Origin: a virus
Direction: 5' to 3' (one strand)
IMG/VR virus record: IMGVR_UViG_3300021093_000007
Length of the DNA stretch: 64,000 nt
Each line of letters opens with the position of its first letter. The first letter of the stretch is position 1. Below the pieces are notes generated by a model. It worked only from the letters and a program-made list of their open reading frames with translations, was not told where the DNA came from and did not search any database. The translations under genes were made by a program, and so were the position numbers. Shown here one piece after another: positions 12,635 to 56,434 of this stretch.

Positions 12635-14436
12635 AATTTTACCATTGTATTTTTTGTAAGATATTTTCTTTTAATTACAAATAAATCATATCTTTCATCT
12701 TCTGTTCTTTCATTCTCTATAGAATATTGAGTATCTTTTTTCTCCCAAGTATCTAAATCAAAAGGTAATACCTCTACATGAGGATAATTTATGTTTGGAT
12801 CATACACAAATTTTCTTTGGATGTCAAAAATACTTTTTTCTATATCAAAAGTGTTACGTGCAAAATCTTCAATAAAGTCTAATATTTTATCTTTATTTTC
12901 AAATCTTGATAAAGTATCATTTGGCATACCAACACCCAGTCCATGTCCACTTGAATGATTAGAAGGGACTTTTCCAGTATCAAAATATTCAGTTATTGCT
13001 TTTAAGTATTCTCTAAATTCAGTTCCCAAAAATCCAGAGTCATTCATTGTATATTCATATAAAGATTCATAAAATTTTCTATAACTTACTCCCAATACAT
13101 ATCGACAATACTTAGATAAAATTTGTGTATATCCAACATAATGAAATTTAATTGTTATCCAAGAAAACATATGGGCATCAAAAAAGTCTTGTTTAGACAT
13201 CGTATCAGTCTCACAAATTAATTCAATGTATTCTTTTGTATTATCAAATTCATCATTACAGAACGATATGTAATCTTCTGCTTTAACAGTTTTTATACCA
13301 TAAGTCTTTCTACTAAATTCACTACCTAACTCAGCATTTTCAAATACTTGACAGAACCAAGAGTCTACAGAAAAATGTTGTCCGTTTTCCATTAATAAAT
13401 CAATTCCATCTTTCCAAGAATCCACTGTTTCTTCGGGCATTCCTAAAATTAAATCCGTATATAATTTTACATTATGTTTTTTTGCCAATTCAACATGTCC
13501 AGCAATATCTTTTACGTGAAGATTCTTTCTTTTGATCGCTTTAAGTGTTGGCATATTCATACTTTGAACACTTAAAGTGACACCTCTTCTAGAATATTCT
13601 CCCATAATCTTTGCAATTTCAAATGAGGCTTCATTTGAATTTTTTGAGTATTGTAAATCTATATTATCTAACATTAAACTATTTTCTGCTGCTTTACGTA
13701 GCATCTTTGCAATTTCAATATCACGTTCTTTAAATATTCCAAAATTTGCATCCGCACATAAAACATAAGCAACTTTATGTGTTCTTATCCATTCAATATC
13801 TTCAGCAATTCTTTCCAATTCAAATTTATTAATTTTACTCATAGTTGTACCACCCCAGTCACAAAAAGTACATCTATGTGGACAACCCCTGTTGGTTTCT
13901 AAAATTGCTGCCCAAATAACATCTGGATTTTTTTTAGATAACCAATCAAAAACTCCAGATTGGTAAGGACTTTTAAAATCTAAAGAATCTATTCTTTTTC
14001 TTTCATGGACTTTGTTGATTGAATTACCAGTATTAATGCTTCTCAATAATTCTAAAAATGCTTCTTCACCTTCACCAAGGATAACACAATCAATGAATGG
14101 ATTTTTTTCCATCATTTTTGTAGTTACTTGAGGACCACCAAATTCAATAATGCAGTTTGGGTATTTTTCTTTTATCAATTTAGCTAAGTATAAATTATAC
14201 TGCTCATTCCATAGATAACAACTAAATGCACAAATTGTAGGATTATCTATTTTTTCTAGTAACTGTTCTGGATTTTCTCTTCTAAAAATAATATCTTTTA
14301 ATTCAAATGATTCTTCTATATCTTTAAACTGTTTACAATAACTCCATAAACAAGAAACACTATAAGGCATCCAATAATTTTTAGTGTCCCTTACATTAAC
14401 GCTATATTGTGGTTGAATGAAGTATATATTTTTCAT
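12631..14436 (-). CDS. B12-binding radical SAM protein (paralog 1)
   Basis: Same architecture; ETNRGCPHRCTFCDWG; 4-bp overlap with its neighbour. Confidence 0.9.
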   Translation of the reverse strand: MKNIYFIQPQYSVNVRDTKNYWMPYSVSCLWSYCKQFKDIEESFELKDIIFRRENPEQLLEKIDNPTICAFSCYLWNEQYNLYLAKLIKEKYPNCIIEFGGPQVTTKMMEKNPFIDCVILGEGEEAFLELLRSINTGNSINKVHERKRIDSLDFKSPYQSGVFDWLSKKNPDVIWAAILETNRGCPHRCTFCDWGGTTMSKINKFELERIAEDIEWIRTHKVAYVLCADANFGIFKERDIEIAKMLRKAAENSLMLDNIDLQYSKNSNEASFEIAKIMGEYSRRGVTLSVQSMNMPTLKAIKRKNLHVKDIAGHVELAKKHNVKLYTDLILGMPEETVDSWKDGIDLLMENGQHFSVDSWFCQVFENAELGSEFSRKTYGIKTVKAEDYISFCNDEFDNTKEYIELICETDTMSKQDFFDAHMFSWITIKFHYVGYTQILSKYCRYVLGVSYRKFYESLYEYTMNDSGFLGTEFREYLKAITEYFDTGKVPSNHSSGHGLGVGMPNDTLSRFENKDKILDFIEDFARNTFDIEKSIFDIQRKFVYDPNINYPHVEVLPFDLDTWEKKDTQYSIENERTEDERYDLFVIKRKYLTKNTMVKL

Positions 14437-15341
14437 AACGTAGATATAAATTTATTATGTTGTTCAATTCCTCTTTTATAAAAATATTTATCGTCCCATC
14501 GTTTAATATCTCGTTCCATTAGATTATCATTTAATTTTCCAAAATTAAAAAAATCATTCAAGCTAAAATTATCTTTATCGTTTTCCCACCATTCTTTATA
14601 TGCTTCATAGCAACAAATAAAAGATTTCATTGGATACCATTCTGTAATGTGAGTTGAACCTTTGAAAAAAGGATTACACGGAATCAATGGTATTGTATAA
14701 GTATTCCCAGTTTGACATAAAAAATAATCTGGAGTTCCTGCAAGATCATTAAAAAAATAACCATCACCTATTCCAGATTCTCTATTAATATAAATTGAGT
14801 TTGCCACAACTCCAGTAAATTTATATTTACCATCAACATAAAAAAGTTCTAAAAGTTTTTCAACATGAGTTCTTTTTAATAATACTGGACCAAGAGAATA
14901 ATTACTCTGAACTGGATGTAAATAAAATCTAACTATGTCTGGACATTCATGCCCCAATTGTATAGCATCCCAATCATAAGGAAGATATGTTAGTAAATTG
15001 TCCCAAGTAAAGTGCCAGTAATCGATAAAACTTAAATCATAATCATCTTCCATTACTATGACATAAGGTTCATTTGTTTCAAAATACCAATTTTTTAAAG
15101 TATCAATTAAAAAATAATTATACGCCAAACATCTTTTAGATGCTAATTCAGAGTGAACATTTAATATTTTTTCCTCTAAGTTCTTTGGAAATCCAAATGG
15201 CATCAAAATTTTTGTAAAGGTGATTCCATAAAACTTAAATTGATTTTCCATGTATTTTTGTCTTTTTACTTCATTTTCCAAAGTAAAATAAAATACATGA
15301 GGAAAGTTTTTTAATTTATCACATCCCATAATCAAATACAT
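14433..15341 (-). CDS. glycosyltransferase family 25-like protein
   Basis: VFYFTL...RQKYMENQF, VMEDDYDL, LPYDWDAIQL; same family as the five genes at 46713-51017. Confidence 0.75.
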   Translation of the reverse strand: MYLIMGCDKLKNFPHVFYFTLENEVKRQKYMENQFKFYGITFTKILMPFGFPKNLEEKILNVHSELASKRCLAYNYFLIDTLKNWYFETNEPYVIVMEDDYDLSFIDYWHFTWDNLLTYLPYDWDAIQLGHECPDIVRFYLHPVQSNYSLGPVLLKRTHVEKLLELFYVDGKYKFTGVVANSIYINRESGIGDGYFFNDLAGTPDYFLCQTGNTYTIPLIPCNPFFKGSTHITEWYPMKSFICCYEAYKEWWENDKDNFSLNDFFNFGKLNDNLMERDIKRWDDKYFYKRGIEQHNKFISTL

Positions 15342-17848: not shown

Positions 17849-17897
17849 ATTTAATATAATTCAAACAAAACCAAACACGTTACAAAGGTAAAAGCAA

Positions 17898-19307: not shown

Positions 19308-19326
19308 GTCTGGTCACAACTTAATC

Positions 19327-19353: not shown

Positions 19354-19373
19354 ATCTAAATAGTTAAAAAACG

Positions 19374-44871: not shown

Positions 44872-45405
44872 ATGAAAGTAAAAAGAATCGATTCTAACAT
44901 AATTGGAGATTATGTTAATATAGAATATCCAGATAGGAGGCAATTTCCTGATGATGAAACCGTTAATCGGTGGAAATCATTGGGACATTTGTATGTAAAT
45001 TATACTGGACTTCTTCGGGAAGAATATAGAGGTGTTCCTGAGTGGTGTCATAACATTGTGGATGTGTTTAAAAAAAAGTATATTCAAGATGGTGATGAAT
45101 GGTTATTTATTAAAGACACTTCCTTGTCTCTTTATTGTATGCCTCCAGGAACAATAATGCCCGAGCATCAAGATAATTATCCTAAGTTTAGAGAAATTTA
45201 CAATGAACCAGATGTAAATAAAATTTGTAGGATTTTAATTTTCCTTGATGATTGGAAAAGCGGACATTATTTTGAATTGGATGGAGAACCATATGTAAAA
45301 TGGTCAAAGGGAGATTATTTGTGGTGGAGAGGAAACACACCACACATGGCGGCAAATCTAGGTAATGAAAATAGATATACTATGCAGATAACCGCAACAT
45401 TATGA
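44872..45405 (+). CDS. putative 2OG-Fe(II) oxygenase
   Basis: MPEHQD...HMAAN...RYTMQIT (HxD...H...R). Confidence 0.65.
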   Translation: MKVKRIDSNIIGDYVNIEYPDRRQFPDDETVNRWKSLGHLYVNYTGLLREEYRGVPEWCHNIVDVFKKKYIQDGDEWLFIKDTSLSLYCMPPGTIMPEHQDNYPKFREIYNEPDVNKICRILIFLDDWKSGHYFELDGEPYVKWSKGDYLWWRGNTPHMAANLGNENRYTMQITATL

Positions 45406-46130
45406 AAAGAAGAGCAGTTATAGATGATGTTGTAGAGCAGTATACAAAGTATTGCTCATCATTTTCTTTTAAATTACAAAAAGGAATAAAGGGTCAAGAA
45501 ATACATAAGGAGGGGTTTGTCAATTGTTATTGGGCAAAAGACTATAAGTTAGTTTACATGCACGTTGATAAATGTGGAAGCACTTCTGTAACAACAGCAT
45601 TTAATTTAAATTGTTCTCAATTTATTCCTCTAGATAAATTACCAAGAGCAAAAAATCCAGATTTTTTATCTCAGTATTTTGTAGAATCAAACCATACATT
45701 TTTTGCTATAACAAGAGAACCAGGAAAAAGATGGGTATCTGGATTAAATGAGTTTATGTGTAGATATAGACCACCAGTAGAATGGGTAGTTAAGGAAATT
45801 AAGAATAAAAAATATATCTATGATGAACATACTGCACCTCAAAAAGTTTTTTTAAGATTGTGTTTTGAACATGGTGGTAATTTAAAATTAATAAAACTGG
45901 ATGGAAATCTTACTGAGAATGTTAATAATTTTATAAAAGATAATATTGAAGATACGGAGCAAAGAGAAAAATATGAATCGTTTAAAATACCACATTTAAG
46001 AGACTCAAAATATTTTTATCCTAATTATACTTCAATATGCACTTACTTATACGAGAACTTTGTATTTGATTGTGAAGAATTCAAGGAACTTTATGCGGAG
46101 GATTTTAAGTTATATGAAAGTGGGATTTGA
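45402..46130 (+). CDS. sulfotransferase family 2-like protein
   Basis: HVDKCGSTS (5'-PSB-like), TREPGKRWVSG (3'-PB-like), DEHTAPQ, LYAEDFKLY. Confidence 0.7.
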   Translation: MKRRAVIDDVVEQYTKYCSSFSFKLQKGIKGQEIHKEGFVNCYWAKDYKLVYMHVDKCGSTSVTTAFNLNCSQFIPLDKLPRAKNPDFLSQYFVESNHTFFAITREPGKRWVSGLNEFMCRYRPPVEWVVKEIKNKKYIYDEHTAPQKVFLRLCFEHGGNLKLIKLDGNLTENVNNFIKDNIEDTEQREKYESFKIPHLRDSKYFYPNYTSICTYLYENFVFDCEEFKELYAEDFKLYESGI

Positions 46131-46716
46131 TACTGTATCTGAGTTTGAAAGATTAATCGCAAACTATTTTAATGCACCATATGCGGTTGCAACAGATTGC
46201 TGCACACATGCAATCGAATTGTGTTTGCGATACGAGAAATATGACGATATTCAAATACCAGAACAAACTTATATTTCGATCCCATTCACTGCAGAGAAGT
46301 TGGGAATAAAGTGGACATGGAAAAAGAATTATATTTGGAATGACTATTATTATCTTTGGAACACTAATATAATTGACGCGGCAGTTTTATGGGAAAAGGA
46401 TTCATATCTTCCAGGAACATATATGTGTTTGAGTTTTCAATTTAGAAAACATTTAAATCTTGGTAGAGGTGGAATGATATTATTGGATAATTTAGAGGCA
46501 TACAATTGCCTTAAAAAGATGGTTTATGATGGTAGAACTAATGATAAACCTTGGGGTGAACAAGACATAGATATGATAGGGTATCACTATTATATGACTC
46601 CAGAAACAGCATCTCTAGGAATTGAAAAATTTAAAGAAGTTGCTTTTAAAGAACCAAAAAGATATCAATATCTTGACTATCCGTTTTTGCCAGATATGCG
46701 AGTATTTAAAAAATGA
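46114..46716 (+). CDS. DegT/DnrJ/EryC1/StrS-type PLP aminotransferase, shortened (200 aa)
   Basis: FERLIANYF...AVATDCCTHAIEL, IIDAA, SFQFRKHL..GRGGMI, GYHYYM. Confidence 0.8.
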   Translation: MKVGFDTVSEFERLIANYFNAPYAVATDCCTHAIELCLRYEKYDDIQIPEQTYISIPFTAEKLGIKWTWKKNYIWNDYYYLWNTNIIDAAVLWEKDSYLPGTYMCLSFQFRKHLNLGRGGMILLDNLEAYNCLKKMVYDGRTNDKPWGEQDIDMIGYHYYMTPETASLGIEKFKEVAFKEPKRYQYLDYPFLPDMRVFKK

Positions 46717-47591
46717 ATTTAGATAATAAACTAAAAGGATTACCACCAATTTTTTATTTAAACCTAGACCATCGACTTGATAGAAAGGAACATATTGAAG
46801 GTCAGTTCAAAAAATGGGGAATTACAGACTTCACACGAGTTTCTGCATCTAGATTCTCTACGGCAAAAATTGATGAGTGGGCACATAAACTTGATTTGAT
46901 GCTTCTTGCACCGTCGGATGCTTCAATTGTTATGAATGAGTTCACTACTTTGATTGAGTGGTATCAATCTGGAATCTCAGAAGTTTGCATGATTGTTCAA
47001 GATGACCTTTGTTTAGACCTTGTTGAATATTGGCCGTTTGATTGGCAAACTGTGATGAAGAGACTTCCTTATAACTGGGACATTGTTCAGTTTTATCATT
47101 GTCATGACCATGTATTAAAGATGCATTTAAACCCAAGAGAATGGCATTGCTCTTCTGCTGCTTGTTTTATTGTTAATAGACTTTTTGTTGAAAAATTAAT
47201 TAAAATACATTTACAACCAGATGGAAGTTTTAAACTTAATAATAGTCTTAGAGATTTAAAAGTTCCTAGAGAGTCATATAGTAGCGATGATTTTTTAATT
47301 TATCAGGTAGGAAAATCTTATACATTACCTCTTGTTTGTTTAGACCCTAAACTTGCTGTTGCCCCCGATAATAAGATTGAAAATATTGAAGAGGATGAAG
47401 AATATGATCCAATTATTAGTGCATATCACAACAAGATATATGACATTCTTGCAACATCATGTATTAAAAAATGGTGGGAAAATAATAGTCAAAAATATAC
47501 TGCGGATGATATTCTGAGTTATGGTGGTGCTGTTCATGAGATGATGCAGGTGCAACTACCACAATATGATAGGAAGGTGCTACCAAAATGA
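46713..47591 (+). CDS. glycosyltransferase family 25-like (cluster copy 1)
   Basis: IFYLNLDHRLDR, RVSA, VQDDL, LPYNWDIVQF. Confidence 0.75.
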   Translation: MNLDNKLKGLPPIFYLNLDHRLDRKEHIEGQFKKWGITDFTRVSASRFSTAKIDEWAHKLDLMLLAPSDASIVMNEFTTLIEWYQSGISEVCMIVQDDLCLDLVEYWPFDWQTVMKRLPYNWDIVQFYHCHDHVLKMHLNPREWHCSSAACFIVNRLFVEKLIKIHLQPDGSFKLNNSLRDLKVPRESYSSDDFLIYQVGKSYTLPLVCLDPKLAVAPDNKIENIEEDEEYDPIISAYHNKIYDILATSCIKKWWENNSQKYTADDILSYGGAVHEMMQVQLPQYDRKVLPK

Positions 47592-48469
47592 TTGAAGAAT
47601 TAGAACTTAATTGTAAAACTAATTTTAGTAAAGTTAGTGATATTCCGAAGATAATTTATCTTAATGATGAGAGTGATGTTGAGAAAAGGGATTATATGGA
47701 ATCTCAATTCTCTGGATGGGAAATTGTAAATTATTCCAGATATCAAAAAAAATACAAAGCAGAAAATTATGATGATTGGAAGAATTTAATTTTAGATAAA
47801 GATCTTGTTCAGTCACCAGAAGAACTAGCATTAACTCTCAATGTCTTGCAGTCAATTATTGATTGGTATGATTCTGATGATTCTGAAGTTTGTATTTTTA
47901 TGGAAGATTATGTAAAATTTGATATTATTAATGATTGGTTTTTTGATTGGAACTTTTTAATTGAACACCTTCCATACAATTGGGATTGTATTCAACTGTT
48001 TAGTTCTGCAGAAAGAAGAATTAAAATGCATTTACATCCTTGGGAAAGGGATAGTGGGTCTTGTCATTGCTATATGATAACTAGATACTTTGCTAAAAGA
48101 ATCAAGCACTATCATTATAGAAATGGTAAGTTTATATTACATTATTCCACTCCTGATAAATCTATTCCAGATTTTGAATTTGGAAGTTTACATAACTTCT
48201 TTTATGACCTTGGAATAACTTATACTCTTCCAATATTTAATTTAAACAATAAATTTATTGAGGGTGAAACTGTCAACGAAGTTATGGATAAATTGTCCTC
48301 AGAAGCAATAGAATATTGGTGGTCAATTAGAAGTAAGTCATATTCTAATTTTGAATTTTTTCATTACAATAAAGAAGATGAATGGAAAATGGAAGTTATG
48401 TTTGATATATCAACAAAAAGACCGTATGTATTCAAAGATAGAACAGAAGGTTTATTAATATGGATTTGA
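47588..48469 (+). CDS. glycosyltransferase family 25-like (copy 2)
   Basis: IIYLND...KRDYMESQF, FMEDYV, LPYNWDCIQL. Confidence 0.72.
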   Translation: MIEELELNCKTNFSKVSDIPKIIYLNDESDVEKRDYMESQFSGWEIVNYSRYQKKYKAENYDDWKNLILDKDLVQSPEELALTLNVLQSIIDWYDSDDSEVCIFMEDYVKFDIINDWFFDWNFLIEHLPYNWDCIQLFSSAERRIKMHLHPWERDSGSCHCYMITRYFAKRIKHYHYRNGKFILHYSTPDKSIPDFEFGSLHNFFYDLGITYTLPIFNLNNKFIEGETVNEVMDKLSSEAIEYWWSIRSKSYSNFEFFHYNKEDEWKMEVMFDISTKRPYVFKDRTEGLLIWI

Positions 48470-49362
48470 GTGAAAAACTAGTTGATATGCCAAAGGTCTA
48501 TTTTTTTAACTTAGATAATAGAGAAGATAGAAAAAAATGGATGGTGAAGCAATTTGACAAATATAATATTGAGTATGAAAGAGTTTCTGGAACAAAATAT
48601 CTTGCTTCTCAAAATTCTACTTGGAAGCATTTAATTGTAGATATTGATGAATATAAGTTATTAGTTCCAATTGCTGCTAATGCAATAACCCATTTAGACT
48701 TTTTAAAAAATTGGTATAATACAACTCAAGACGAATATGTTATTTTGATGGAGGATGATTATGATCTAGGTTTAATTAGATATTGGCATTTTAATTGGAA
48801 TGAGATGATTGAAAGATTACCTTATGATTGGGATTGTATTTTAATGGGATTTGAAAATCCCGTTGAAGTTAGATTTCATTTACATCCAATTGAAGCAGCC
48901 CATGATTTTGGACCTGTTCTTTTAAATAGAAATTTTGTTGAGAAGTTACTAGACATTCATTGTGTTGGTGATGCATATAAGTTAGTCAATACGGTCTCAA
49001 ATGAAGCATGGAATAGGCAGTCCGACGTATCTGGATCTGGCACTGTAGATTATTTTATGGTTCATTCTGGCAGAACGTATTGTTTACCACTAATAAGTAT
49101 CAATCCAAACTTTGGAAGTTTTGAGAATAATAGTATTATCCAAAGATTTTATAGAAGTGAAGGTGATATAATTGCAAGAAATACTTATTATTTTTGGTGG
49201 CAACATGAGCGTGATAATTATTCATTAGATGATTTTTTTACTTTTGGATCCAAAACTCATGAAAAGATGAAATTAAAACCAGATAGATTTAGAACATATG
49301 ACATAACAAATAAGGCATATCAGTTATATGGTCAAATGTATTTGGATTATTTCCTCAAATAA
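48460..49362 (+). CDS. glycosyltransferase family 25-like (copy 3)
   Basis: YFFNLDNREDR, RVSG, THL, LMEDDYDL, LPYDWDCI. Confidence 0.78.
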   Translation: MDLSEKLVDMPKVYFFNLDNREDRKKWMVKQFDKYNIEYERVSGTKYLASQNSTWKHLIVDIDEYKLLVPIAANAITHLDFLKNWYNTTQDEYVILMEDDYDLGLIRYWHFNWNEMIERLPYDWDCILMGFENPVEVRFHLHPIEAAHDFGPVLLNRNFVEKLLDIHCVGDAYKLVNTVSNEAWNRQSDVSGSGTVDYFMVHSGRTYCLPLISINPNFGSFENNSIIQRFYRSEGDIIARNTYYFWWQHERDNYSLDDFFTFGSKTHEKMKLKPDRFRTYDITNKAYQLYGQMYLDYFLK

Positions 49363-49368
49363 CAGAGA

Positions 49369-49374
49369 TAAATA
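49369..49374 (+). promoter_or_regulatory. late promoter core inside the glycosyltransferase cluster
   Basis: GATAAATA in the only sizeable intergenic gap of the cluster (49363-49410). Confidence 0.55.
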
Positions 49375-49410
49375 TTTTTAATAGAATAATGAAGTGTTGT
49401 TCAAATTATT

Positions 49411-50211
49411 ATGGATTTAAAGAATAAGTTAAAAGGTATACCAAAAATATATTACTTTAATTACTTAGAGAATCGTCATTTAGACGAACATATGGATCGC
49501 AATCTAAGTAATTTGAGAGTTGAGAATTATGAAAGAGTTCCTATTCAGTATGATAGGGTTAATGTAACTGATTGGAAACATCTTTTATTAAATCCTAAAG
49601 AATATAAACTACCCATATCTACGGCAGCATATGCAATAACTGTATTGGAGTTTTTAAAAAACTGGTATAATAATACTGAAGAAGATACTCTGATAATATC
49701 CAAAGATACAATAGATTTTGGATTAGAACTTTACTGGAAGTTTGATTGGGAATATTTAATGAGTAGACTTCCCTATGATTGGGATTCTTTGCTGCTTGGA
49801 TTTGAGAATATTAATTATATCCCATTTTACCTGCATCCAATTATGCCAGCACATACCTTTGGTATATCAATGTTAAACCGTAGGTATGTTAAAAAATTAA
49901 TAAGACTTCATTGTATAGAAGAAAAGTATAGTCTTACAAATTATATTGCAAATAAAAATTATGGATCTCATTCTGGAACAGTTGATTACTTTTTAGGTCA
50001 TTGTGGAAAGACATACTGTTTACCAATGCTTCCAAATCATACTGACTTTTTTGATAAAACAACAAAGAGATATACAATTATAAAAGCGTGTAGATTGGCG
50101 TATTATGATTGGTGGAGAAACGATAGCAAGAGACATAATTTTGAAGAAATATTTACTTATGGAAAACAGAACGATATAGGAATGCTCAAAAAAACATATA
50201 AGTATTTTTGA
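49411..50211 (+). CDS. glycosyltransferase family 25-like (copy 4, acidic motif degenerate)
   Basis: IYYFNY, ISKDTIDF in place of MEDDYDL, LPYDWDSL. Confidence 0.7.
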   Translation: MDLKNKLKGIPKIYYFNYLENRHLDEHMDRNLSNLRVENYERVPIQYDRVNVTDWKHLLLNPKEYKLPISTAAYAITVLEFLKNWYNNTEEDTLIISKDTIDFGLELYWKFDWEYLMSRLPYDWDSLLLGFENINYIPFYLHPIMPAHTFGISMLNRRYVKKLIRLHCIEEKYSLTNYIANKNYGSHSGTVDYFLGHCGKTYCLPMLPNHTDFFDKTTKRYTIIKACRLAYYDWWRNDSKRHNFEEIFTYGKQNDIGMLKKTYKYF

Positions 50212-50213
50212 TT

Positions 50214-51017
50214 ATGATTGATCCGTTAAAAAAATTAGATAACTTTCCACATATTTACTATGTAAATTTGGACAATAGAACTGATCGTAAACAATATATG
50301 GAAGACCAGTTTGATTATTGGAGATTGAACTTTACAAGGATATCCGCATCCAAGTTTTTAGCTTCTGAATTGGATCAATGGGGTTCACATTATGTTGTTG
50401 GTAAGGTAACTGGTATTCCAGCGTATGCTCTTGGCAATGCAATTACTCATCTTGAGTTTATGAAAAAATGGATAAACACCAGAGATGATGATTATCTGTT
50501 ATTAATGGAAGATGATTATGATTTAAATTTGTTGGAGTATTGGAATTTTAATTGGAATTATTTGATGAGTAGACTTCCTTATGATTGGGATTGTATACAA
50601 CTTGGATTTGAATCTGAAGAATTTATTCCTTTCTTTTTACACCCAAAATTGAGGCATAGTTACTTTGGTCCAGTAATGATGACAAGAGACTATGTTGAAA
50701 AAATATTAGATCTGCATTGTTATGGTGAAAAATATAGATTCGATAAAACAATCGCACTTAACAAATTTAATAAAAGTTCTACAACTGTGGATTACTTTAT
50801 TGGACATACGGGTAGAACTTATTCAATACCATTGATAACCACAAATATAATTTCAACAAGCACAGAGTTTGGAATAGAAATTAATAGAATACATCACAAA
50901 AAATCTAGATGTGCATATTATTATTGGTGGATGAAGGAGCATTTAAAATTTACTTTAGACGACTTCTTCACTTATGGAAAAGAAAATGATCACAAAATGG
51001 TTTTAACTACGAGTTAA
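50214..51017 (+). CDS. glycosyltransferase family 25-like (copy 5)
   Basis: YYVNLDNRTDR, RISA, THL, LMEDDYDL, LPYDWDCIQL. Confidence 0.78.
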   Translation: MIDPLKKLDNFPHIYYVNLDNRTDRKQYMEDQFDYWRLNFTRISASKFLASELDQWGSHYVVGKVTGIPAYALGNAITHLEFMKKWINTRDDDYLLLMEDDYDLNLLEYWNFNWNYLMSRLPYDWDCIQLGFESEEFIPFFLHPKLRHSYFGPVMMTRDYVEKILDLHCYGEKYRFDKTIALNKFNKSSTTVDYFIGHTGRTYSIPLITTNIISTSTEFGIEINRIHHKKSRCAYYYWWMKEHLKFTLDDFFTYGKENDHKMVLTTS

Positions 51018-51019
51018 TT

Positions 51020-51985
51020 ATGTACGCAAAAAATGAATGGGATAAACTAAAAAAAGTTATTGTTGGTGTCGCGGACCATGCAACGATTCCACCAATGGAT
51101 AAGAGTCTAAGAACAATTAATTATGCGGGAATTCAAGATGTCTCGGATGTAAAATCTGGTTTATATCCCCAACAAGTTATTGATGAAGCAAATGAGGATC
51201 TTGATACCTTCTGTAATTTTTTACAAGGAGAAGGTGTGGAAGTTTTAAGACCTAAAAGAGAACTGACAAAGTATTATAATTATTGTCCAAGAGATTCTGT
51301 ATTTGTTCATGGTGAATTGTCTTTGGCGACTCCGCAACCATTAAGGGCAAGACGGGGCAACTGGAGATCATTTGCTCATCATATACCAGACACTATAGAA
51401 GTTCCTTGTTCTTATCATGAGGATTTGTATGATGAATCTTGTATTGGTGATCCAGATATTTTAGCTCTAACTGAATTGACTCCAGCATTTGATGCTGCTA
51501 ATGCTATAAGAGCAAACGAAGAGGTTTTATATTTGGTATCAAACAGTGGTAATGTTGCAGGTGCAACGATACTTCAAAATTATCTAGGGTCTTCGGCAAC
51601 AGTGAGAATTGTAAAAGACATTTATACTTTTGTTCATATTGATACTACGATTGCATTTTTAAGAGAAGGTTTGTTGATGGTAAATCCAACAAGAGTGAAG
51701 GATAAAGAGATGCTCCCATATCCATTCAATACTTGGGATATTATTAATGCACCAGATCCAGTGGACATTGGTTATTATCCAGGTTATAATAATGCTTCAG
51801 AGTGGTGTAACATGAATTTGTTCAGTGTTTCTCCAAATCTAGTTGCCCTTGAAGAACATCAACATCCAACTAGAAAAATTTTAGAAACATATGGCATTGA
51901 ATGTGCAATGCTTCCAATGAGGCATCAAAGAACTCTTAGTGGTGGATTTCACTGTGTAACTTTAGATTTAAAAAGAGAAGCATGA
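51020..51985 (+). CDS. amidinotransferase (glycine / inosamine-phosphate amidinotransferase family)
   Basis: NEWDKLKKVIVG, YCPRDS, FDAAN, HIDTT, LSGGFHCVTLD (catalytic Asp/His/Cys). Confidence 0.9.
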   Translation: MYAKNEWDKLKKVIVGVADHATIPPMDKSLRTINYAGIQDVSDVKSGLYPQQVIDEANEDLDTFCNFLQGEGVEVLRPKRELTKYYNYCPRDSVFVHGELSLATPQPLRARRGNWRSFAHHIPDTIEVPCSYHEDLYDESCIGDPDILALTELTPAFDAANAIRANEEVLYLVSNSGNVAGATILQNYLGSSATVRIVKDIYTFVHIDTTIAFLREGLLMVNPTRVKDKEMLPYPFNTWDIINAPDPVDIGYYPGYNNASEWCNMNLFSVSPNLVALEEHQHPTRKILETYGIECAMLPMRHQRTLSGGFHCVTLDLKREA

Positions 51986-53208
51986 ACATTGGATTTATTG
52001 GACTTGGTAAATTGGGTCTCCCATGTGCGTCAGAGATTGCTGCTAAAAATCATAATGTTTATGGGTATGATGTTGAAGTAAGAAAAAGTAATACCTTTAC
52101 AATTTGCTCTACAATAGAAGAAGTTGTAAAAAAGAGTAGGATTATTTTCATTGCTGTTCCAACTCCCCATGATCCAGACTATGATGGAAGTTCTCCATCT
52201 ATGCATTTAGAACCAAAAGATTTTGATTATTCGATTGTCAAAGATTGCCTTACACAAGTAAATTCGGTAGCAAACGGTCAATTAGTTGTTTTGATTTCTA
52301 CTGTTCTTCCTGGTACAACACGAGAACAGTTTAAACCCCTAATGACAAATGCAAGATTTGTCTATAATCCATATCTAATTGCTATGGGCACAGTTGGATG
52401 GGATATGGTCAATCCCGAAATGGTTATGATTGGAACAGAAGATGGTACAACAACTGGTGATGCAAATGAATTGATCAACTTCTACAAAACCATCATGGAA
52501 AACTCACCAAAGTATTTTGTTGGGACTTGGGATGAGTGTGAGTGTATAAAGGTTTTTTATAATACTTTTATTAGCACTAAGATTGGATTTGTGAATATGA
52601 TTCAAGATGTTGCAATGCGTCAGGGCAATATCAATGTAGATGTAGTTACAAACGCTCTTTGCTCTGCTAACACCCGAATTATTAATTCATCTTACATGAC
52701 TGCTGGTATGGGTGACGGGGGTGCTTGTCATCCAAGAGATAATATTGCACTCAGGTATTTGTCTAAAAAATTAGATCTTGGTTATGATATTTTTGAATCT
52801 GTTATGGGATCCAGAGAAGGTCAAGCTAAGAATCTAGCAAAATATTTGGTAGAATTATCTGAGAAGAATAATCTACCAATTATTATTCATGGTAAGTCAT
52901 ACAAACCAAGAGTGTCTCATCTTGATGGAAGTTACAGTTTATTGGTGGGGTATTATTGTTTGGAGTATGGTAGGACTGTAACTTATGTGGATAGTTGCAC
53001 TGGAGATAATTATCAACCAGAATCTCCAGCAGTATTTTTGTTAGCACATAGCGCAACGACTACTTATAAGTATTGGGATGCTCCAGAAAGTGATGAGTTA
53101 TATTGCAGCATACCTAAGGGGAGTATTGTTGTTGATCCTTGGAGGAAATTTAAATCAGATCATTTAAAAGTTATACACTACGGAAATACAAGAAATGTTA
53201 CATGCTAA
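51982..53208 (+). CDS. UDP-glucose/GDP-mannose dehydrogenase family protein
   Basis: IGLGKLG, IAVPTP, STVLPGTT, IKVFYNTF, GDGGACHPRD. Confidence 0.92.
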   Translation: MNIGFIGLGKLGLPCASEIAAKNHNVYGYDVEVRKSNTFTICSTIEEVVKKSRIIFIAVPTPHDPDYDGSSPSMHLEPKDFDYSIVKDCLTQVNSVANGQLVVLISTVLPGTTREQFKPLMTNARFVYNPYLIAMGTVGWDMVNPEMVMIGTEDGTTTGDANELINFYKTIMENSPKYFVGTWDECECIKVFYNTFISTKIGFVNMIQDVAMRQGNINVDVVTNALCSANTRIINSSYMTAGMGDGGACHPRDNIALRYLSKKLDLGYDIFESVMGSREGQAKNLAKYLVELSEKNNLPIIIHGKSYKPRVSHLDGSYSLLVGYYCLEYGRTVTYVDSCTGDNYQPESPAVFLLAHSATTTYKYWDAPESDELYCSIPKGSIVVDPWRKFKSDHLKVIHYGNTRNVTC

Positions 53209-53737
53209 AACTTTATTCAGTATAACTATTTTAAAATATTCTGTTCCAAACTGGCAGGATAAAAAAATAAAGTTACTGGATTTGATTGATAATAAATCAA
53301 ATCTATTACTTGATGAGTGTCAAACTGATTATTTTAGTTCTTCTGGTAGAGCTTCTTATTTTGATGAGTGGTATTCTATTTTGGGTGAAGACATTCAGAA
53401 TTGTTTAAATAGAATAAACTTACCGTTCTCTTCTCCTGAAGACTGGCAACTTTGGTCTCAAAAATATTATTTTGGAGAATATCATTCAGTACATACCCAT
53501 GGGTTGGGTAATTTATCTGCAGTTTTATATGTTGAATTTGATCCAGATGAACATGTTTCAACACGATTTTATTCTCCGTTTGCCGATCCTTTTTTTGGTA
53601 GTCTTGAAAGTCAAACATTGACAGATATTCAGGAAGGTGATATTATATTCTTTCCTGCCATGTTAATGCATGAATCGCCACCCCAAAAATCTGAAAAGGT
53701 CAGAACAGTTATGTCTTTTAATATTCCAATAAAATAA
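53195..53737 (+). CDS. putative 2OG-Fe(II) oxygenase
   Basis: YHSVHTH...SAVLY...FFPAMLMHES...RTVMSFN. Confidence 0.8.
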   Translation: MLHAKTLFSITILKYSVPNWQDKKIKLLDLIDNKSNLLLDECQTDYFSSSGRASYFDEWYSILGEDIQNCLNRINLPFSSPEDWQLWSQKYYFGEYHSVHTHGLGNLSAVLYVEFDPDEHVSTRFYSPFADPFFGSLESQTLTDIQEGDIIFFPAMLMHESPPQKSEKVRTVMSFNIPIK

Positions 53738-53741
53738 CCTA

Positions 53742-54215
53742 ATGACAATTACAATTTCAAAAAAAGAAAACACTGATGGTTCTCTTGAATTTACTATGAC
53801 CGAAAATAAAGTTATTGATAGTAATAAGTATATTGATTTTGTTCGCCAAACTACCAGTCCTGCTAGTAGCGAACTATCTAATCTTTTGTCTCGTCTTACA
53901 GAACTTGAGGCATCAACAGATGCAGATGTTCCTCGTCTTTTGACCGCTGCTTTGGGTATGACTGCTGAAGCAGGTGAATTTACTGAGGTTGTTAAAAAAA
54001 TCTTCCTTCAAGGCAAATCATATAATGATGAAAATGCATTTCACCTAAAGAGAGAACTTGGTGATATTTGTTGGTATATTGCTCAAGCATGTATGGCACT
54101 GGGAACCAACTTTGAGGAAATTCTTCAAATGAACTATGAAAAATTGAGTGCTCGTTATCCTGAAGGTGCATTTGATGTATATCGTTCAGAAAATAGAGTA
54201 AAAGGAGATCTATGA
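53742..54215 (+). CDS. mazG: MazG-like NTP pyrophosphohydrolase
   Basis: LLTAALGMTAEAGEFTEVVKK, KRELGDICWY, NYEKLSARYP. Confidence 0.94.
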   Translation: MTITISKKENTDGSLEFTMTENKVIDSNKYIDFVRQTTSPASSELSNLLSRLTELEASTDADVPRLLTAALGMTAEAGEFTEVVKKIFLQGKSYNDENAFHLKRELGDICWYIAQACMALGTNFEEILQMNYEKLSARYPEGAFDVYRSENRVKGDL

Positions 54216-55699
54216 TAACTAAGAGTATTTGTATTCTTGGTGGTGGGACGGCAGGGTTTATGTGCGCTGCAGTCCTTTCTCAGTATGTTAAAAACAATAA
54301 TGTTGATTTAAAAATTAAGTGTGTTTATTCTTCTAAAATTGGAATTATAGGAGTAGGAGAATCGACGCAACTTGCAATTAATGGCATCTTTCAATTTTTA
54401 AGACTATCTGATAAAAATTGGATGCCAAAATGTAATGCAACATATAAAACAAATGTTAGATTTGAAAATTGGGCAGAAGAACCTTACTACTATCCTTTTG
54501 GTGATATGACAGGTGAAGATGTATCTCAATTTTTGGTTATGATGGATTTGTTTCCAGAGGAAATTAAAAAAACTCAGTTTGCTAGACATGTTAGAGGAAG
54601 TTCTAGGTTTGCTGAGTTGAATAGATTGAGTGATGAAGGTTGGGATTTTAATGAACTTACTTCGTATCATTTTGATACTCATAAATTATCATCTCTTCTT
54701 TATGACATTGGTGTAAAAAATGGAGTTGAATATATTGATGATATCTACTTAGATTCATCTTTAAACAAAGATGGTGGGATTGATTTTATCACTTGCGAAG
54801 AAACAGGAAATCATGCTGCTGATTTGTTTATTGATTGTACTGGTTTTAAATCACTTCTTCTCGGACAAAAACTCAATGTCGAATATATTTCATATGCAGA
54901 TACTTTAATTAATGATAGAGTAATTAGTGCTAAAATTCCTTATGAAAATAAAGAAGAGCAGCTAAAAAGTTACACTAATAATGTTGCAATGGAAAATGGA
55001 TGGTGTTGGGAGATTCCATTATGGGATGGATTATCTGTTGGATATGTTCATAGCACCAAGTTTTCTACAGAAGAAGAAATATATAAAGAATTTGTAGATA
55101 GATATTCTGTAGAACCAAATGCACCAATTTATTTTAAGACAGGAAGATATAAAAATTCTTGGGTTAAAAACGTTGTTGCTGTTGGTCTTTCTTGGGGATT
55201 TATTGAACCATTAGAAGCAACTGGTCTTGCTTCAGTAGTTAATAATATTTTTAGATTGTTAGAAACATTATCAACAAATTTAGCAATTAATTCATTTGAT
55301 AAACATGCTTATAATCGTGCGTGTAATTTGGAATTGGATGGTTTAAAAACTTTTATTGATATGCACTATGCAGCAGTGCATAGAGAAGATACGGAATATT
55401 GGAATTATGTTACTAATGTTGTTGAGTATCCATGGGATCAACGAAACTGTGGAAGATCAATTGAATTGATTATGGGGGATAGAGATTTTTCCAATAGACA
55501 GATCAATGGTGGACTTCCATTTATTTTAGTAGGATCTGGATATGGACCTAATTCTCCTGGATTTATATCTTCTTTGGGTGATAAAAAACATTATGAAAGG
55601 TTTAAGGACGCTTGGTTGTCTTATGACTCAGAAATGACTGAGGTATTTTTAAACTTCCCAACAACTTTTGAATATACCAATAAGAAGTTGTATGAGTAA
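54212..55699 (+). CDS. flavin-dependent halogenase (tryptophan halogenase PrnA-like)
   Basis: GGGTAG, IGVGEST, ATYK, FIDCTGF, GWCWEIP (WxWxIP), FIEPLEATG. Confidence 0.9.
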   Translation: MITKSICILGGGTAGFMCAAVLSQYVKNNNVDLKIKCVYSSKIGIIGVGESTQLAINGIFQFLRLSDKNWMPKCNATYKTNVRFENWAEEPYYYPFGDMTGEDVSQFLVMMDLFPEEIKKTQFARHVRGSSRFAELNRLSDEGWDFNELTSYHFDTHKLSSLLYDIGVKNGVEYIDDIYLDSSLNKDGGIDFITCEETGNHAADLFIDCTGFKSLLLGQKLNVEYISYADTLINDRVISAKIPYENKEEQLKSYTNNVAMENGWCWEIPLWDGLSVGYVHSTKFSTEEEIYKEFVDRYSVEPNAPIYFKTGRYKNSWVKNVVAVGLSWGFIEPLEATGLASVVNNIFRLLETLSTNLAINSFDKHAYNRACNLELDGLKTFIDMHYAAVHREDTEYWNYVTNVVEYPWDQRNCGRSIELIMGDRDFSNRQINGGLPFILVGSGYGPNSPGFISSLGDKKHYERFKDAWLSYDSEMTEVFLNFPTTFEYTNKKLYE

Positions 55700-56324
55700 A
55701 TTTTTGTCCTATGAAAGTATCCATTCAAATCTGTCTTTGTTAAATGATAATTATGATAAAATTTTGGATGAATATAAATCTAATTTAAGCAAGTTAGAAT
55801 TTAGAGACTTTACTGAACAACAAAATAATTATATTAAAAAGCAAAATAGAGGGTATCCTATTGGATATTCCTCTTATTTTTCTGCAAATAAAAGAGATAC
55901 CTCTAAACCTGGATGGCATCTTGCCCCTCTTTTTGCAGAAAGAAATCCTATTCTTTTTAATACTTCACTGATGCCATTCTTAACAAATGTTTTGTTAGAA
56001 GTTGGATTAACTGATGCTTGTGCTATTAATGCGTTAGATCCTGGGCAATCTTTAAATTGGCACATTGATCAAGATTATATTCCAGGTGTTCAGTTACTTA
56101 GAATTATTTGGGGGTTGGATATTGACCCAAATGACCCAGAAGATGCTATAATACAAATAATGGATGAGGACGGGAAGATCGAAACAAGATCTTTTACCAA
56201 CAAATCATTCTACATATTTCATCCTATGTCTAAACATAGAGTTGAAAATAAAATGAAATCTTGCAGATCAGTTCTGTGTATAGACTATATCACAGATAAA
56301 AATTATTCTGTTGGATTTTTGTAA
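55692..56324 (+). CDS. aspartyl/asparaginyl beta-hydroxylase-like 2OG-Fe(II) oxygenase
   Basis: GWHLAPL, LDPGQSLNWHID, HRVEN...RSVLCID. Confidence 0.72.
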   Translation: MSKFLSYESIHSNLSLLNDNYDKILDEYKSNLSKLEFRDFTEQQNNYIKKQNRGYPIGYSSYFSANKRDTSKPGWHLAPLFAERNPILFNTSLMPFLTNVLLEVGLTDACAINALDPGQSLNWHIDQDYIPGVQLLRIIWGLDIDPNDPEDAIIQIMDEDGKIETRSFTNKSFYIFHPMSKHRVENKMKSCRSVLCIDYITDKNYSVGFL

Positions 56325-56325
56325 T

Positions 56326-56408
56326 GCCCAGTTGGCGGAATTGGTAGACGCGACAGGTTTAGGTCCTGTTATCTTTATGGTGTGTAGGTTCAAGTCCTAT
56401 ACTGGGTA
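56326..56408 (+). tRNA. trnL: tRNA-Leu (anticodon UAG)
   Basis: Acceptor GCCCAGT/ACTGGGT-A; D arm TGGCGGAATTGGTAGACGC; anticodon arm ACAGG-TTTAGGT-CCTGT; long variable arm; T arm GTAGG-TTCAAGT-CCTAT; no encoded CCA. Confidence 0.95.
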
Positions 56409-56434
56409 TCTAAATAAAAAAAACCATTATATAG

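Follow-up and report, generated by a model that had tools for sequence, protein, structure and literature searches.

A T4-like cyanophage, represented here by a 64,000-nucleotide stretch of DNA (the window), carries in the interval from the helicase gene gp41 to mazG an operon-like island of ten genes (44872-53208). The heart of this module is a trio formed by an AspH-type 2OG/Fe(II) oxygenase, a mini-DegT aminotransferase consisting of the PLP domain only, and a StrB1-like amidinotransferase. We consider it an even call whether the island would take a host nucleotide sugar through oxidation, amination and amidination while its five soluble transferases build a glycan of defined structure that may be uronic and sulfated.

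The enzymes that the initial annotation had listed were all confirmed at the positions given below. The 14 ORFs of the 44872-56324 region are all on the + strand and tightly packed, with overlaps of 4-17 nt and a single real intergenic gap (49363-49410), and the island begins 2 nt past the gp41 stop codon. None of the island proteins contains membrane-spanning segments. When compared with S-SRM01, eleven extra genes (44872-53737) separate gp41 from mazG in the window. The features are as follows.

44872..45405, + strand: o1, small AspH-type 2OG/Fe(II) oxygenase of 177 aa, core member
45402..46130, + strand: o2, PAPS-type carbohydrate sulfotransferase (Sulfotransfer_2)
46114..46716, + strand: o3, half-size DegT/StrS-type PLP sugar aminotransferase, core member (Pfam DegT, E 1.5e-14)
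46713..47591, + strand: o4, GT25-like paralogue A, motif QDD (phrog_2835, E 9e-35)
47588..48469, + strand: o5, GT25-like paralogue B, motif EDY (phrog_2835, E 1e-28)
48460..49362, + strand: o6, GT25-like paralogue C, motif EDD (phrog_2835, E 1e-41)
49368..49374, + strand: ATAAATA late-promoter-like motif, in the sole intergenic gap of the array
49411..50211, + strand: o7, GT25-like paralogue D, motif KDT (phrog_2835, E 9e-22)
50208..51017, + strand: o8, GT25-like paralogue E, motif EDD (phrog_2835, E 8e-45)
51020..51985, + strand: o9, StrB1-like L-arginine amidinotransferase, module anchor (phmmer against PDB 1bwd)
51982..53208, + strand: o10, NDP-sugar 6-dehydrogenase of the UDP-Glc/GDP-Man dehydrogenase family (Pfam)
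53195..53737, + strand: o11, 2OG-FeII_Oxy_5 oxygenase, variable neighbour (Pfam, E 8e-12)
53742..54215, + strand: MazG pyrophosphohydrolase, ordinary cyanophage gene near gp41 (Pfam, E 1e-7)
54212..55699, + strand: flavin-dependent (Trp-type) halogenase, variable accessory gene (Pfam Trp_halogenase, E 1e-93)
55668..56324, + strand: o14, Asp/Asn beta-hydroxylase-like 2OG oxygenase, variable neighbour (Pfam Asp_Arg_Hydrox, E 3e-9)
56325-56410: tRNA-Leu, directly past o14
14433..15341, - strand: sixth GT25-like paralogue, motif EDD, in the capsid module (alignment with o4-o8; 26% identical to o4, the reference)

On sequence grounds, o9 is an L-arginine amidinotransferase. Its residues 4-319 align full-length to StrB1 (PDB 1bwd; phmmer E 5e-57) with the PRD, FDAAN, HxD and GGFHC motifs all retained, which confirms the intact Asp/His/Cys motifs noticed initially, and the protein is an estimated 40-45% identical to StrB1 and about 27 residues shorter. 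StrB1 scored 197 bits, versus 106-113 bits for glycine, polyamine and saxitoxin amidinotransferases, HsvA and AGAT being significant matches as well. Relatives of o9 are encoded on 184 IMG/VR contigs, and 4875 proteins matched at E<=1e-20, the best 120 of these 4875 being at least 64% identical; the best cellular relatives found were 36-39% identical, the viral clade standing apart. The linkage of the gene and its closeness to StrB1 suggest that an amino sugar is the acceptor.

The presumed source of the amine, o3, has the PLP residues expected of a DegT-type enzyme, as had been proposed, but at 200 aa it comprises the large domain only, a half size that the initial annotation had missed. In an alignment with AtmS13, its SFQxxK falls on the Schiff-base lysine motif, and D88, S107-F-Q, K112 and GRGG are invariant in 29 orthologues of 195-234 aa. 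The AlphaFold2 model (pLDDT 95.4) retrieved sugar aminotransferases as top Foldseek matches (query-normalised TM about 0.7), including WbpE, KdnA, BtrR and other aminoglycoside aminotransferases, and Flavobacterium phage immuto also has a mini-DegT, within what is clearly a sugar cluster. The C-terminal domain of DegT enzymes normally aids nucleotide-sugar binding, and therefore another substrate, or activity in a complex only, might apply to the mini-DegT, which lacks it. The third member of the trio, o1, had no Pfam match itself; its family shows an invariant HxD...H...R motif in 21 diverse orthologues, 10 of which match Asp_Arg_Hydrox (PF05118; best E 1.4e-7).

Two further enzymes, o10 and o2, are constant members of the window's own island class. 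In o10, the Pfam N-terminal (E 1e-17) and central (E 4e-16) domains were recognized and a profile search for the C-terminal UDP-binding domain detected none, the protein scoring under the NCBIfam cut-offs. The catalytic Cys of its GGACHPRD sequence aligns with that of GGSCFPKD and is retained in 42 of 44 family matches. The sulfotransferase o2 matched positions 6-249 of the 252-position Sulfotransfer_2 profile with E 7e-7 and 30.1 bits, above the cut-off of 22, and its PAPS-binding motifs, K-x-G/A-S-T and R-D/E-P-x-x-R-W-x-S, are retained in all 33 orthologues.

All five GT25-like paralogues claimed for this stretch (o4-o8) matched phrog_2835, with E values from 1e-22 to 1e-45, and o6 also gave a Pfam GT25 match (E 2.7e-4) that falls below the cut-off. 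The number five holds for the array, but a sixth paralogue lies outside it, at 14433-15341 on the - strand, in the same orientation as two B12 radical SAM genes and with an ATAAATA just upstream (15355, - strand); it is possibly related in function to the island. The array members share 25-29% mutual identity, and each has its own conserved orthologue among the relatives, where gene order is retained. The acidic motif is xQDD in 34 of 35 o4 orthologues and MEDD in all 59 of o6. The canonical acidic metal-binding motif is missing in two of the five, since most o5 orthologues have lost the final acidic residue and o7 carries a basic residue in place of the first acid ((R/K)-D-x in 35/35 orthologues, mostly (R/K)D(T/I)). 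This conserved order and the paralogue-specific motifs suggest that the five transferases have distinct roles. The o8 model (AlphaFold2 pLDDT 93.8) had as best Foldseek matches the GT25 enzymes human ColGalT1, mimivirus R655 and a bacterial beta-1,4-galactosyltransferase (E 1e-7 to 1e-9). As for the late promoter initially placed at 49369, an ATAAATA is indeed present at 49368-49374, and about 10 of the 16 relatives that were checked carry one at the matching site, between their o6 and o7 orthologues; as a motif match only, it is a putative promoter.

To follow the inheritance of these genes, 67 related viral loci with adequate flanks were scanned around the amidinotransferase gene; because the loci share ancestry, the counts are not independent events and represent only about three independent arrangements. 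A mini-DegT is found beside the amidinotransferase in 65 of the loci, an o1-type oxygenase near it in 61, and GT25-like transferases also in 61, usually with 4-6 copies in an array (52 of the 63 loci with at least 6 kb upstream). The sulfotransferase occurs at 29/67 loci, only in the after-gp41 class to which the window belongs, and the sugar dehydrogenase at 36/67, a count reckoned to one island class, the L080 type having a dehydrogenase too. The second arrangement, the S-SCSM2R type, contains a P4H-like oxygenase and a radical SAM gene, with a TobZ/NodU-type carbamoyltransferase in some loci, and the third, the L080 type, has dehydrogenase and radical SAM genes and no GT25. Even in this GT25-free class the amidinotransferase and the mini-DegT retain the o1-type oxygenase as a companion. 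Moreover, the trio is present in a distant virus with a DNA polymerase of only about 30% identity, the amidinotransferase and mini-DegT being 65% and 61% identical, and therefore it travels as a module. The co-occurrence of amidinotransferase, DegT and GT25 in other phage contigs, suggested initially as a check, was thus observed, and the genes proved to be co-inherited over three arrangements and distant viruses rather than scattered independently.

The same scan and a comparison with S-SRM01 and P-SSM2 separated the module from its downstream neighbours, which had initially been counted in the pathway. In S-SRM01, mazG is the gene immediately after gp41, in P-SSM2 it comes one gene further on, and the module is missing there in both. 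Of the 67 loci, 1 has a halogenase near the amidinotransferase, P-SSM2 carrying one elsewhere in its genome, while o11 and o14 lie near it in 13 and 15 loci, respectively. MazG, the halogenase and o14 are therefore neighbours and not parts of the module, and o11 probably lies outside it as well. The proposal of a guanidino-sugar pathway is supported by co-inheritance, intact catalytic motifs and closeness to StrB1, with these four genes excluded.

In such a pathway, o10 would oxidise C6 of a host nucleotide sugar to the uronic acid, as its family and retained catalytic Cys suggest, and the oxygenase might, as a guess, turn a ring carbinol into a ketone, a step for which the radical SAM enzyme may substitute in the other island classes. 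The mini-DegT, on the basis of its family and intact PLP residues, would then add an amine, from which the amidinotransferase would make the guanidino group with arginine as donor. Cytoplasmic assembly of a defined oligosaccharide by the five transferases would follow, with o2 sulfating it. This three-step logic resembles that of the streptidine branch, in which oxidation is followed by StsC-type transamination and amidination by StrB1 (L-arginine:inosamine-phosphate amidinotransferase), because o9, with its shared Asp/His/Cys catalytic residues, adjoins an aminotransferase of the DegT/StrS family as well as an oxidising enzyme. In contrast to that branch, the island has no cyclitol synthase or kinase, its aminotransferase is half the size, its oxidant is a 2OG oxygenase (radical SAM in other classes) rather than an NAD dehydrogenase, and the trio is accompanied by GT25 transferases together with a uronic-acid dehydrogenase and a sulfotransferase. 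The WbpA/WbpB/WbpE (UDP-2,3-diacetamido-2,3-dideoxy-uronic acid) and KdnB/KdnA (Kdo8N) systems likewise combine a UGDH-family 6-dehydrogenase, keto-sugar oxidation and a DegT-family transaminase, and yield amino uronic or amino ulosonic acids for bacterial LPS, but their aminotransferases are full-length and their oxidases depend on NAD or a metal, the amine being N-acetylated or receiving an acetamidino group from another enzyme family without any pentein amidinotransferase. The 'LPS' islands of the same virus family (P-SSM2, S-SRM01, S-SCSM2R), whose functions are putative in all cases, also accumulate genes for glycosyltransferases and for sugar-nucleotide enzymes in hypervariable regions, although most of them are without amidinotransferase and mini-DegT and contain a single GT25-like gene instead of five or six. 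The initial statement that no phage pathway with this combination has been characterised holds insofar as only annotation is published, but the combination itself is already in print in S-SCSM2R, whose homologous module (ORF301-310) was labelled "antibiotic synthesis genes" in 2025 by annotation only (PMC12801897).

That label agrees with a different product, a free, diffusible guanidinylated pseudo-oligosaccharide of the aminoglycoside (streptidine) type, which the virus would produce during infection as a secondary metabolite acting on competing phages, bacteria or host translation. The closeness of o9 to StrB1, the fold matches of the mini-DegT to BtrR and other aminoglycoside enzymes, the carbamoyltransferase and radical SAM genes of other classes, which are typical of aminoglycoside tailoring, and the soluble nature of all the proteins without carrier or export machinery are consistent with it. 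Nevertheless, we regard it as distinctly improbable, since neither a cyclitol synthase nor an inositol dehydrogenase nor a sugar/cyclitol kinase turned up in the island genes scanned, a resistance or export gene is absent, the NDP-sugar 6-dehydrogenase and sulfotransferase suggest a glycan, and the island transferases are GT25/GT-A and not the GT-B enzymes of aminoglycoside pathways. There is a small probability that no single pathway exists and that accessory genes merely gathered in a hypervariable region, o9 acting on a small amine such as glycine, lysine or a polyamine. In agreement with this, the gp41-gp61 interval varies among cyanophages, HsvA and AGAT are significant o9 matches, speD is a few kb from the S-SCSM2R module, and 98 isolate records contain single GT25-like genes, only one of these records having close (cyanophage-type) amidinotransferase relatives. 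However, the trio is adjacent in 61-65 of the 67 loci, in three arrangements and across the polymerase divide, the gene overlaps resemble one translationally coupled operon, and multi-copy GT25-like arrays go with the amidinotransferase, S-SCSM2R having four GT25-matching places and every other isolate record listed one.

The remaining alternatives concern the target. Phages glycosylate and aminate DNA bases, T4 glucosylating hydroxymethylcytosine, and the location of the island within the replication module, between gp41 and mazG, would fit hypermodification of phage DNA by a sugar or an amino/guanidino group, as had been considered initially. We judge this very improbable: in a complete 246.5-kb island-bearing relative, neither a ThyA-type hydroxymethylase nor a C5 DNA methyltransferase was found, and no Tet/JBP oxygenase was detected in a search run without a positive control; S-SCSM2R and other classes hold the module far from replication genes; and five or six distinct transferases, GT25-like rather than T4 alpha/beta-GT-like as judged from o8, exceed the need of any known DNA glycosylation system. 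Alternatively, protein side chains could be modified directly with no novel sugar, the oxygenases hydroxylating Lys, Pro or Asp of a phage protein, the GT25 enzymes glycosylating these hydroxyl groups with ordinary UDP-hexoses in the manner of ColGalT1 and mimivirus R655/L230, and o9 making homoarginine from lysine. The top structural matches, a collagen hydroxylysine galactosyltransferase and mimivirus R655 (PMC9546862), suit this option, and so do the late-type motif inside the array and the presence of three oxygenases of AspH or P4H type within or next to the island. It would leave the conserved sugar aminotransferase, dehydrogenase and sulfotransferase unexplained, the o1-type oxygenase keeps to its two partners without GT25 in the L080 class, and no collagen-like protein was found in one complete relative, so that we consider it distinctly unlikely. 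To our knowledge, there is no protein-lysine amidinotransferase.

Returning to the guanidino-sugar pathway, the GT25 structural matches of its transferases, at TM about 0.5, span members acting on proteins and on LOS, and therefore the fold does not settle the acceptor. The ATAAATA in the array, the sixth paralogue behind another ATAAATA in the capsid module, and the ColGalT1/R655 matches hint at late expression or at a protein as the target. Within this reading, a phage (virion) protein is our tentative choice, short of even probability, and is slightly favoured over the core of host LPS or lipo-oligosaccharide, which is rather unlikely; other acceptors take the remaining share. Virus-encoded soluble glycosyltransferases are also found in giant-virus glycan clusters, among the collagen-modifying enzymes of mimivirus (L230, R699, R655) and in the capsid/tail glycosylation of mycobacteriophages, systems that act on virion proteins in the cytoplasm, some with rare amino-sugar pathways, and R655, like human ColGalT1, resembles the phage transferases in fold; a collagen-like acceptor was not found in the complete relative searched here. 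We know of no guanidino sugars from them and of no virion glycan demonstrated for any cyanomyovirus. If the pathway operates as proposed, a guanidino sugar chemistry otherwise known from streptomycin-type antibiotics, and so far uncharacterised in any virus, would be encoded by a gene set widely shared among related viruses.

The genes for gp43, UvsX and gp41 (39835-44870) show a DNA identity of 81% to those of Synechococcus phage S-SRM01 and of 76% to those of Prochlorococcus phage P-SSM2, and they are preceded by portal, prohead protease, scaffold and gp23 genes, on which grounds the window can be assigned to a T4-like cyanomyovirus (Kyanoviridae). In S-SRM01 mazG comes directly after gp41, and in P-SSM2 a single gene separates the two. 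The window carries eleven genes (44872-53737) between gp41 and mazG; after mazG come a halogenase gene, an AspH-like gene and then a tRNA-Leu gene. A search of 50,697 isolate phage records for near-identical DNA matched a mazG piece of 219 nt and nothing more, and therefore the island is absent from these isolates at the DNA level. The fourteen open reading frames of the initial annotation all proved to be real, co-oriented and tightly packed. Searches of Pfam, PHROGs and NCBIfam backed a sulfotransferase, a DegT fragment, an NDP-sugar dehydrogenase, 2OG-FeII_Oxy_5, MazG, Trp_halogenase and Asp_Arg_Hydrox, and no transmembrane segment was found in any island protein.

Island genes and their predicted products
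44872-53208 (+): whole island, o1 to o10; o1, AspH-type 2OG/Fe(II) oxygenase; o2, sulfotransferase; o3, half-size DegT aminotransferase (mini-DegT); o4 to o8, GT25-like paralogues
49411-50211 (+): o7, fourth GT25-like paralogue
50208-51017 (+): o8, fifth GT25-like paralogue
51020-51985 (+): o9, StrB1-like amidinotransferase
51982-53208 (+): o10, NDP-sugar 6-dehydrogenase

The product of o9 matches StrB1 of streptomycin biosynthesis (PDB 1bwd) over residues 4-319 with an E value of 5e-57 (197 bits), ahead of HsvA (1e-31), AGAT (2.5e-30) and SxtG (2e-29), all at 106-113 bits; its score with the Pfam amidinotransferase model is under the cut-off. Compared with the StrB1 catalytic set (Cys332, His227 and Asp108, plus Asp179 and Asp229), the YCPRD, FDAAN, HIDT and GGFHC motifs of o9 match column for column and all catalytic residues are present, and these motifs are invariant in 23 viral sequences. 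By full-length homology and catalytic residues, o9 is thus a predicted pentein-superfamily amidinotransferase of the AGAT/StrB1 type. An arginine-dependent transfer to an amino sugar or cyclitol rather than to a small amine would fit the linkage to sugar genes, which is what bears on the acceptor. In a large protein database, the 120 clusters (at 90% identity) with the best scores each have an identity of 64% or more to o9. Relatives in 185,579 cellular species genomes amount to seven loci, the best full-length matches being 36-39% identical, and no informative gene context was found around these seven.

Close relatives of o9 are encoded by 184 IMG/VR contigs, of which 80 were retrieved with flanks. 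In the 67 loci whose flanks were long enough, every ORF was searched with profiles and the genes were counted. The joint occurrence of amidinotransferase, DegT and GT25 genes in other phage contigs, for which the initial annotation had proposed a scan, was borne out by the mini-DegT (65/67) and GT25-like (61/67) counts.

Genes near the amidinotransferase gene (67 loci)
mini-DegT: 65/67
o1-type oxygenase: 61/67
GT25-like: 61/67
NDP-sugar dehydrogenase: 36/67
MazG: 30/67
sulfotransferase: 29/67
gp41: 20/67
o14 type (AspH-like gene): 15/67
o11 type (gene preceding mazG): 13/67
halogenase: 1/67

Four to six GT25-like copies occur in 52 of the 63 loci with at least 6 kb of upstream sequence, and the loci sort into at least three arrangements.

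Arrangements of the amidinotransferase loci
Window class, after gp41: o1, sulfotransferase, mini-DegT, five or six glycosyltransferases, amidinotransferase, dehydrogenase
S-SCSM2R class: P4H-like oxygenase, glycosyltransferases, mini-DegT, radical SAM, glycosyltransferase, o1-type oxygenase, amidinotransferase
GT25-less class: dehydrogenase, mini-DegT, amidinotransferase, o1-type oxygenase, radical SAM genes

Some loci of the S-SCSM2R class add a NodU/TobZ-type carbamoyltransferase, as in the following case.

L039, 11814-13310 (+): NodU/TobZ-type carbamoyltransferase (Carbam_trans_C, E value 2e-54), one gene downstream of the amidinotransferase; a sugar-tailoring step

The GT25-less class is represented by IMGVR_UViG_3300028384_000991 (4169-13835), which contains no GT25 genes, two radical SAM genes and several genes without a family match, for which Pfam gave no informative match. 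The DNA polymerase of this virus is only about 30% identical to that of the window, whereas the amidinotransferase is 65% and the mini-DegT 61% identical, and the set of four enzymes that includes the o1-type oxygenase and the dehydrogenase falls at 57-65%. Because of this disparity, the core (o1-type oxygenase, mini-DegT and amidinotransferase) must have moved horizontally between viruses as a unit. Since the 67 loci share ancestry, their counts are not independent trials, and the real evidence for one module is its persistence through rearrangement and transfer.

The mini-DegT o3 is 200 amino acids long in the window and 195-234 in 29 diverse viral orthologues. Its SFQFRK motif aligns with SFQALK of AtmS13, which holds the Schiff-base lysine, and D88 (the PLP aspartate, which binds the pyridine nitrogen), S107, K112 and GRGG are invariant in the 29 sequences. 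An AlphaFold2 model of o3 (pLDDT 95.4) aligns structurally with the large domain of GDP-perosamine synthase, ArnB, BtrR, WbpE, KdnA and others; Foldseek gave E 3e-10 and a query-normalised TM of about 0.7 for GDP-perosamine synthase, ArnB, BtrR and others, but a TM normalised to the target of only about 0.38. DegT enzymes have a two-domain architecture of about 360-400 amino acids with a C-terminal small domain, which is missing in every viral orthologue. The mini-DegT is a conserved minimal form and not a pseudogene or broken gene, and as a PLP aminotransferase that nature has minimised it deserves attention by itself. A related mini-DegT lies inside an evident sugar cluster of Flavobacterium phage immuto.

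Although o1 itself has no Pfam match, its family keeps an invariant HxD...H...R pattern and 10 of 21 members match Asp_Arg_Hydrox, so that o1 can be classed as a small 2OG/Fe(II) oxygenase. The o1 family gave no significant hhalign match to o14 or to o11, and no solved relatives of o1 or of the sulfotransferase o2 were found by sequence. The latter scores 30.1 bits with the Sulfotransfer_2 Pfam model (cut-off 22), and its PAPS motifs (5'-PSB and 3'-PB, DKCGSTS and R(D/E)PxxRWxS) are kept in 33/33 orthologues. The dehydrogenase o10 matches the NAD-binding (PF03721, E 1e-17) and central (PF00984, E 4e-16) domains of the UDP-glucose/GDP-mannose 6-dehydrogenase family, with no PF03720 match for the C-terminal UDP-binding domain. 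It scores 154 bits against TIGR03026 (cut-off 189.8), and all equivalogs are far under cut-off, hence no substrate sugar is named. Its GGACHPRD motif aligns with GGSCFPKD, and the catalytic cysteine is kept in 42 of 44 family matches, because of which o10 should yield a uronic acid instead of stopping at the aldehyde. A Cys-less dehydrogenase that stops at the aldehyde and feeds a C6 transamination was considered and rejected, the cysteine being present.

All five of o4 to o8 match phrog_2835 (E 1e-22 to 1e-45), and they are 25-29% identical among themselves and to a sixth copy elsewhere in the window. With the Pfam GT25 model (cut-off 24 bits) the scores are 21.3 bits for o6 and 19 bits for o8, and o4, o5 and o7 have no match; atlas neighbours of the GT25-like proteins carry PF01755. 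The model of o8 (pLDDT 93.8) has a GT-A fold, and its top structural matches (E 1e-7 to 1e-9, TM about 0.5) are ColGalT1 (9evj), the human collagen hydroxylysine galactosyltransferase, mimivirus R655 (9crz) and a bacterial beta-1,4-galactosyltransferase (beta-1,4-GalT, 8xkd). A GT25-like profile search against R655 gave E 5e-4. The D/E-x-D site in the window reads QDD in o4, EDY in o5, EDD in o6, KDT in o7, EDD in o8 and EDD in the sixth copy. Among orthologues the states from o4 to o8 are QDD, (E/D)D-x, EDD, (R/K)D(T/I) and EDD, each conserved in its own orthologues, and the order of the five transferases is kept in relatives. That every transferase has a conserved motif state of its own indicates five distinct, selected roles. 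The o7 orthologues (loci L003-L042) carry (R/K)-D-(T/I) in place of E-D-D in 35/35 cases, and because a basic residue occupies the metal-binding position, the o7 type may be a metal-independent GT-A enzyme and not a dead copy. A GT25 domain in the N-terminal 300 amino acids of the P4H-like oxygenase that heads the S-SCSM2R-type cluster, an idea modelled on bifunctional LH3 or L230, was rejected (hhalign probability 0.2). The sixth copy belongs to a separate operon.

10862-15341 (-): operon between portal gp20 and prohead protease gp21; the sixth GT25-like gene (14433-15341) and two B12-binding radical SAM enzymes of 590 and 601 amino acids
15355 (-): ATAAATA beside this operon

Syntenic copies of the operon occur in two IMG/VR relatives that also have the amidinotransferase island, and tblastn of the twin radical SAM genes in the 50,697 isolate phage records gave no match.

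What the analysis shows directly is which enzyme classes are present, that their catalytic residues are intact and that they are inherited together; these are the observed part of a pathway whose individual reactions have precedents: DegT enzymes aminate keto sugars, StrB1-type enzymes transfer the amidino group of arginine to a primary amine, UGDH-type enzymes having the cysteine yield uronic acids, and GT25 enzymes transfer hexoses from UDP-sugars. In the proposed pathway the oxygenase would supply the ketone, a role in which the radical SAM enzyme may serve in other island classes, and the amine installed by the mini-DegT would be the amidino acceptor. The five transferases would assemble one defined oligosaccharide containing the guanidino amino sugar, and the sulfotransferase would decorate it. 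In a complete relative, genes for SDR-type sugar epimerases/dehydratases lie some 25 kb downstream of the amidinotransferase gene and no nucleotidyltransferase was found, so that the input is presumed to come from host nucleotide-sugar pools. The island is a real, mobile and widespread viral module, most economically read as one that makes a guanidino amino sugar and builds it into a short glycan. The initial annotation had proposed such a pathway from all fourteen genes; the observation held, and the interpretation stood in part, four of the genes (MazG, the halogenase at 1/67, o11 at 13/67 and o14 at 15/67) being bystanders.

A sigma-70 scan of the island was uninformative because 77 sites were found against 70 expected, and the exact T4 late box TATAAATA is not present in the island. 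ATAAATA is depleted in the whole window (18 matches against 31 expected from shuffles), yet many of its matches directly precede gene starts (e.g. 8565, 16542, 49368, 57522, 58127 and 61016), which fits a putative late promoter core. Two genes beyond the tRNA are kept downstream of the island in relatives.

56435-57517 (+): 360-aa protein just past the tRNA, no Pfam match; kept in several relatives at 34-95% identity
58172-60607 (+): 811-aa very lysine-rich protein, no Pfam match, in which a 37-residue segment is perfectly duplicated in tandem; kept in relatives; ATAAATA ahead of it (58127) and of the preceding gene (57522)

Phage DNA, one of the targets named initially, is an unlikely acceptor. 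T4-type DNA glycosylation requires dedicated DNA glycosyltransferases and an attachment site, made either by a hydroxymethylase or by a methyltransferase together with a TET oxygenase, and neither source of the site was found in the complete relative. No ThyA-type hydroxymethylase, C5 methyltransferase or Tet/JBP enzyme was found in five related viral records (one complete), for which reason DNA modification is ranked low. The complete 246.5-kb island-bearing relative gave no match to PF00303, PF00145 or PF12851, the PF12851 search having been run without a positive control. In other phages, moreover, the module is not near replication genes.

A virion protein and the host LPS core are the two candidate acceptors. 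A virion protein is suggested by the late-type ATAAATA in the sole gap of the array, a motif that about 10 of 16 relatives share, by the sixth GT25-like paralogue behind ATAAATA inside the capsid module, by the protein-hydroxylysine transferases among the structural matches of o8, and by the abundance of protein-type oxygenases around the island. A collagen-like acceptor was discarded, no PF01391 match being found in the complete relative. The LPS core is suggested by the fact that GT25 is classically a LOS family, by uronic and sulfated sugars being typical of surface polysaccharides, and by the fact that a LOS core can be extended without carrier or flippase genes. A free streptidine-like guanidinylated glycoside, that is, an aminoglycoside-type viral metabolite released or active in infection, is improbable; the carbamoyltransferase, radical SAM and BtrR-like features do echo aminoglycosides. 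Such a compound, if real, might for example block competing phages or reprogramme translation, and it would represent the first phage-owned antibiotic-class natural product pathway, widespread in aquatic viruses.

A paper on S-SCSM2R puts its homologues, an AHBA synthase-like gene, a radical SAM gene and an inosamine amidinotransferase gene, down as three "antibiotic synthesis genes" never before reported in cyanophages and present for a reason called unclear, with no link drawn to the adjacent transferases and no product proposed (PMC12801897). S-SCSM2R (PQ898602) also encodes, within 17354-21074, a second, distant pentein amidinotransferase, ORF266, which is 23% identical to o9 and adjoins KdsA/KdsB and two 2OG oxygenases. 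Both ORF266 and ORF269 are reported to be part of the virion proteome (PMC12801897). Literature searches brought up no phage pathway that has been characterised and that combines these enzymes. Taken together, the island would belong among the known virus-encoded glycan islands, with a chemistry that would be new for viruses.

Cyanomyovirus glycan gene islands have been known for many years and, to our knowledge, have no demonstrated product or target. The island described here provides a sharply defined and chemically unusual way into them. A sugar that bears a guanidino group shows a diagnostic mass shift of +42.02 Da and reacts positively in the Sakaguchi test, and it could be followed into virions, the host envelope or metabolites. 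The module is not confined to one genome: close relatives of the amidinotransferase are encoded by 184 contigs, and the module has moved between distantly related viruses. Should the product decorate virions or the surface of the host, it would matter for adsorption, for superinfection exclusion and for grazing or immune recognition of the most abundant viruses of marine and freshwater phototrophs. Arginine nitrogen would also be spent on it, in hosts that are often nitrogen-limited.
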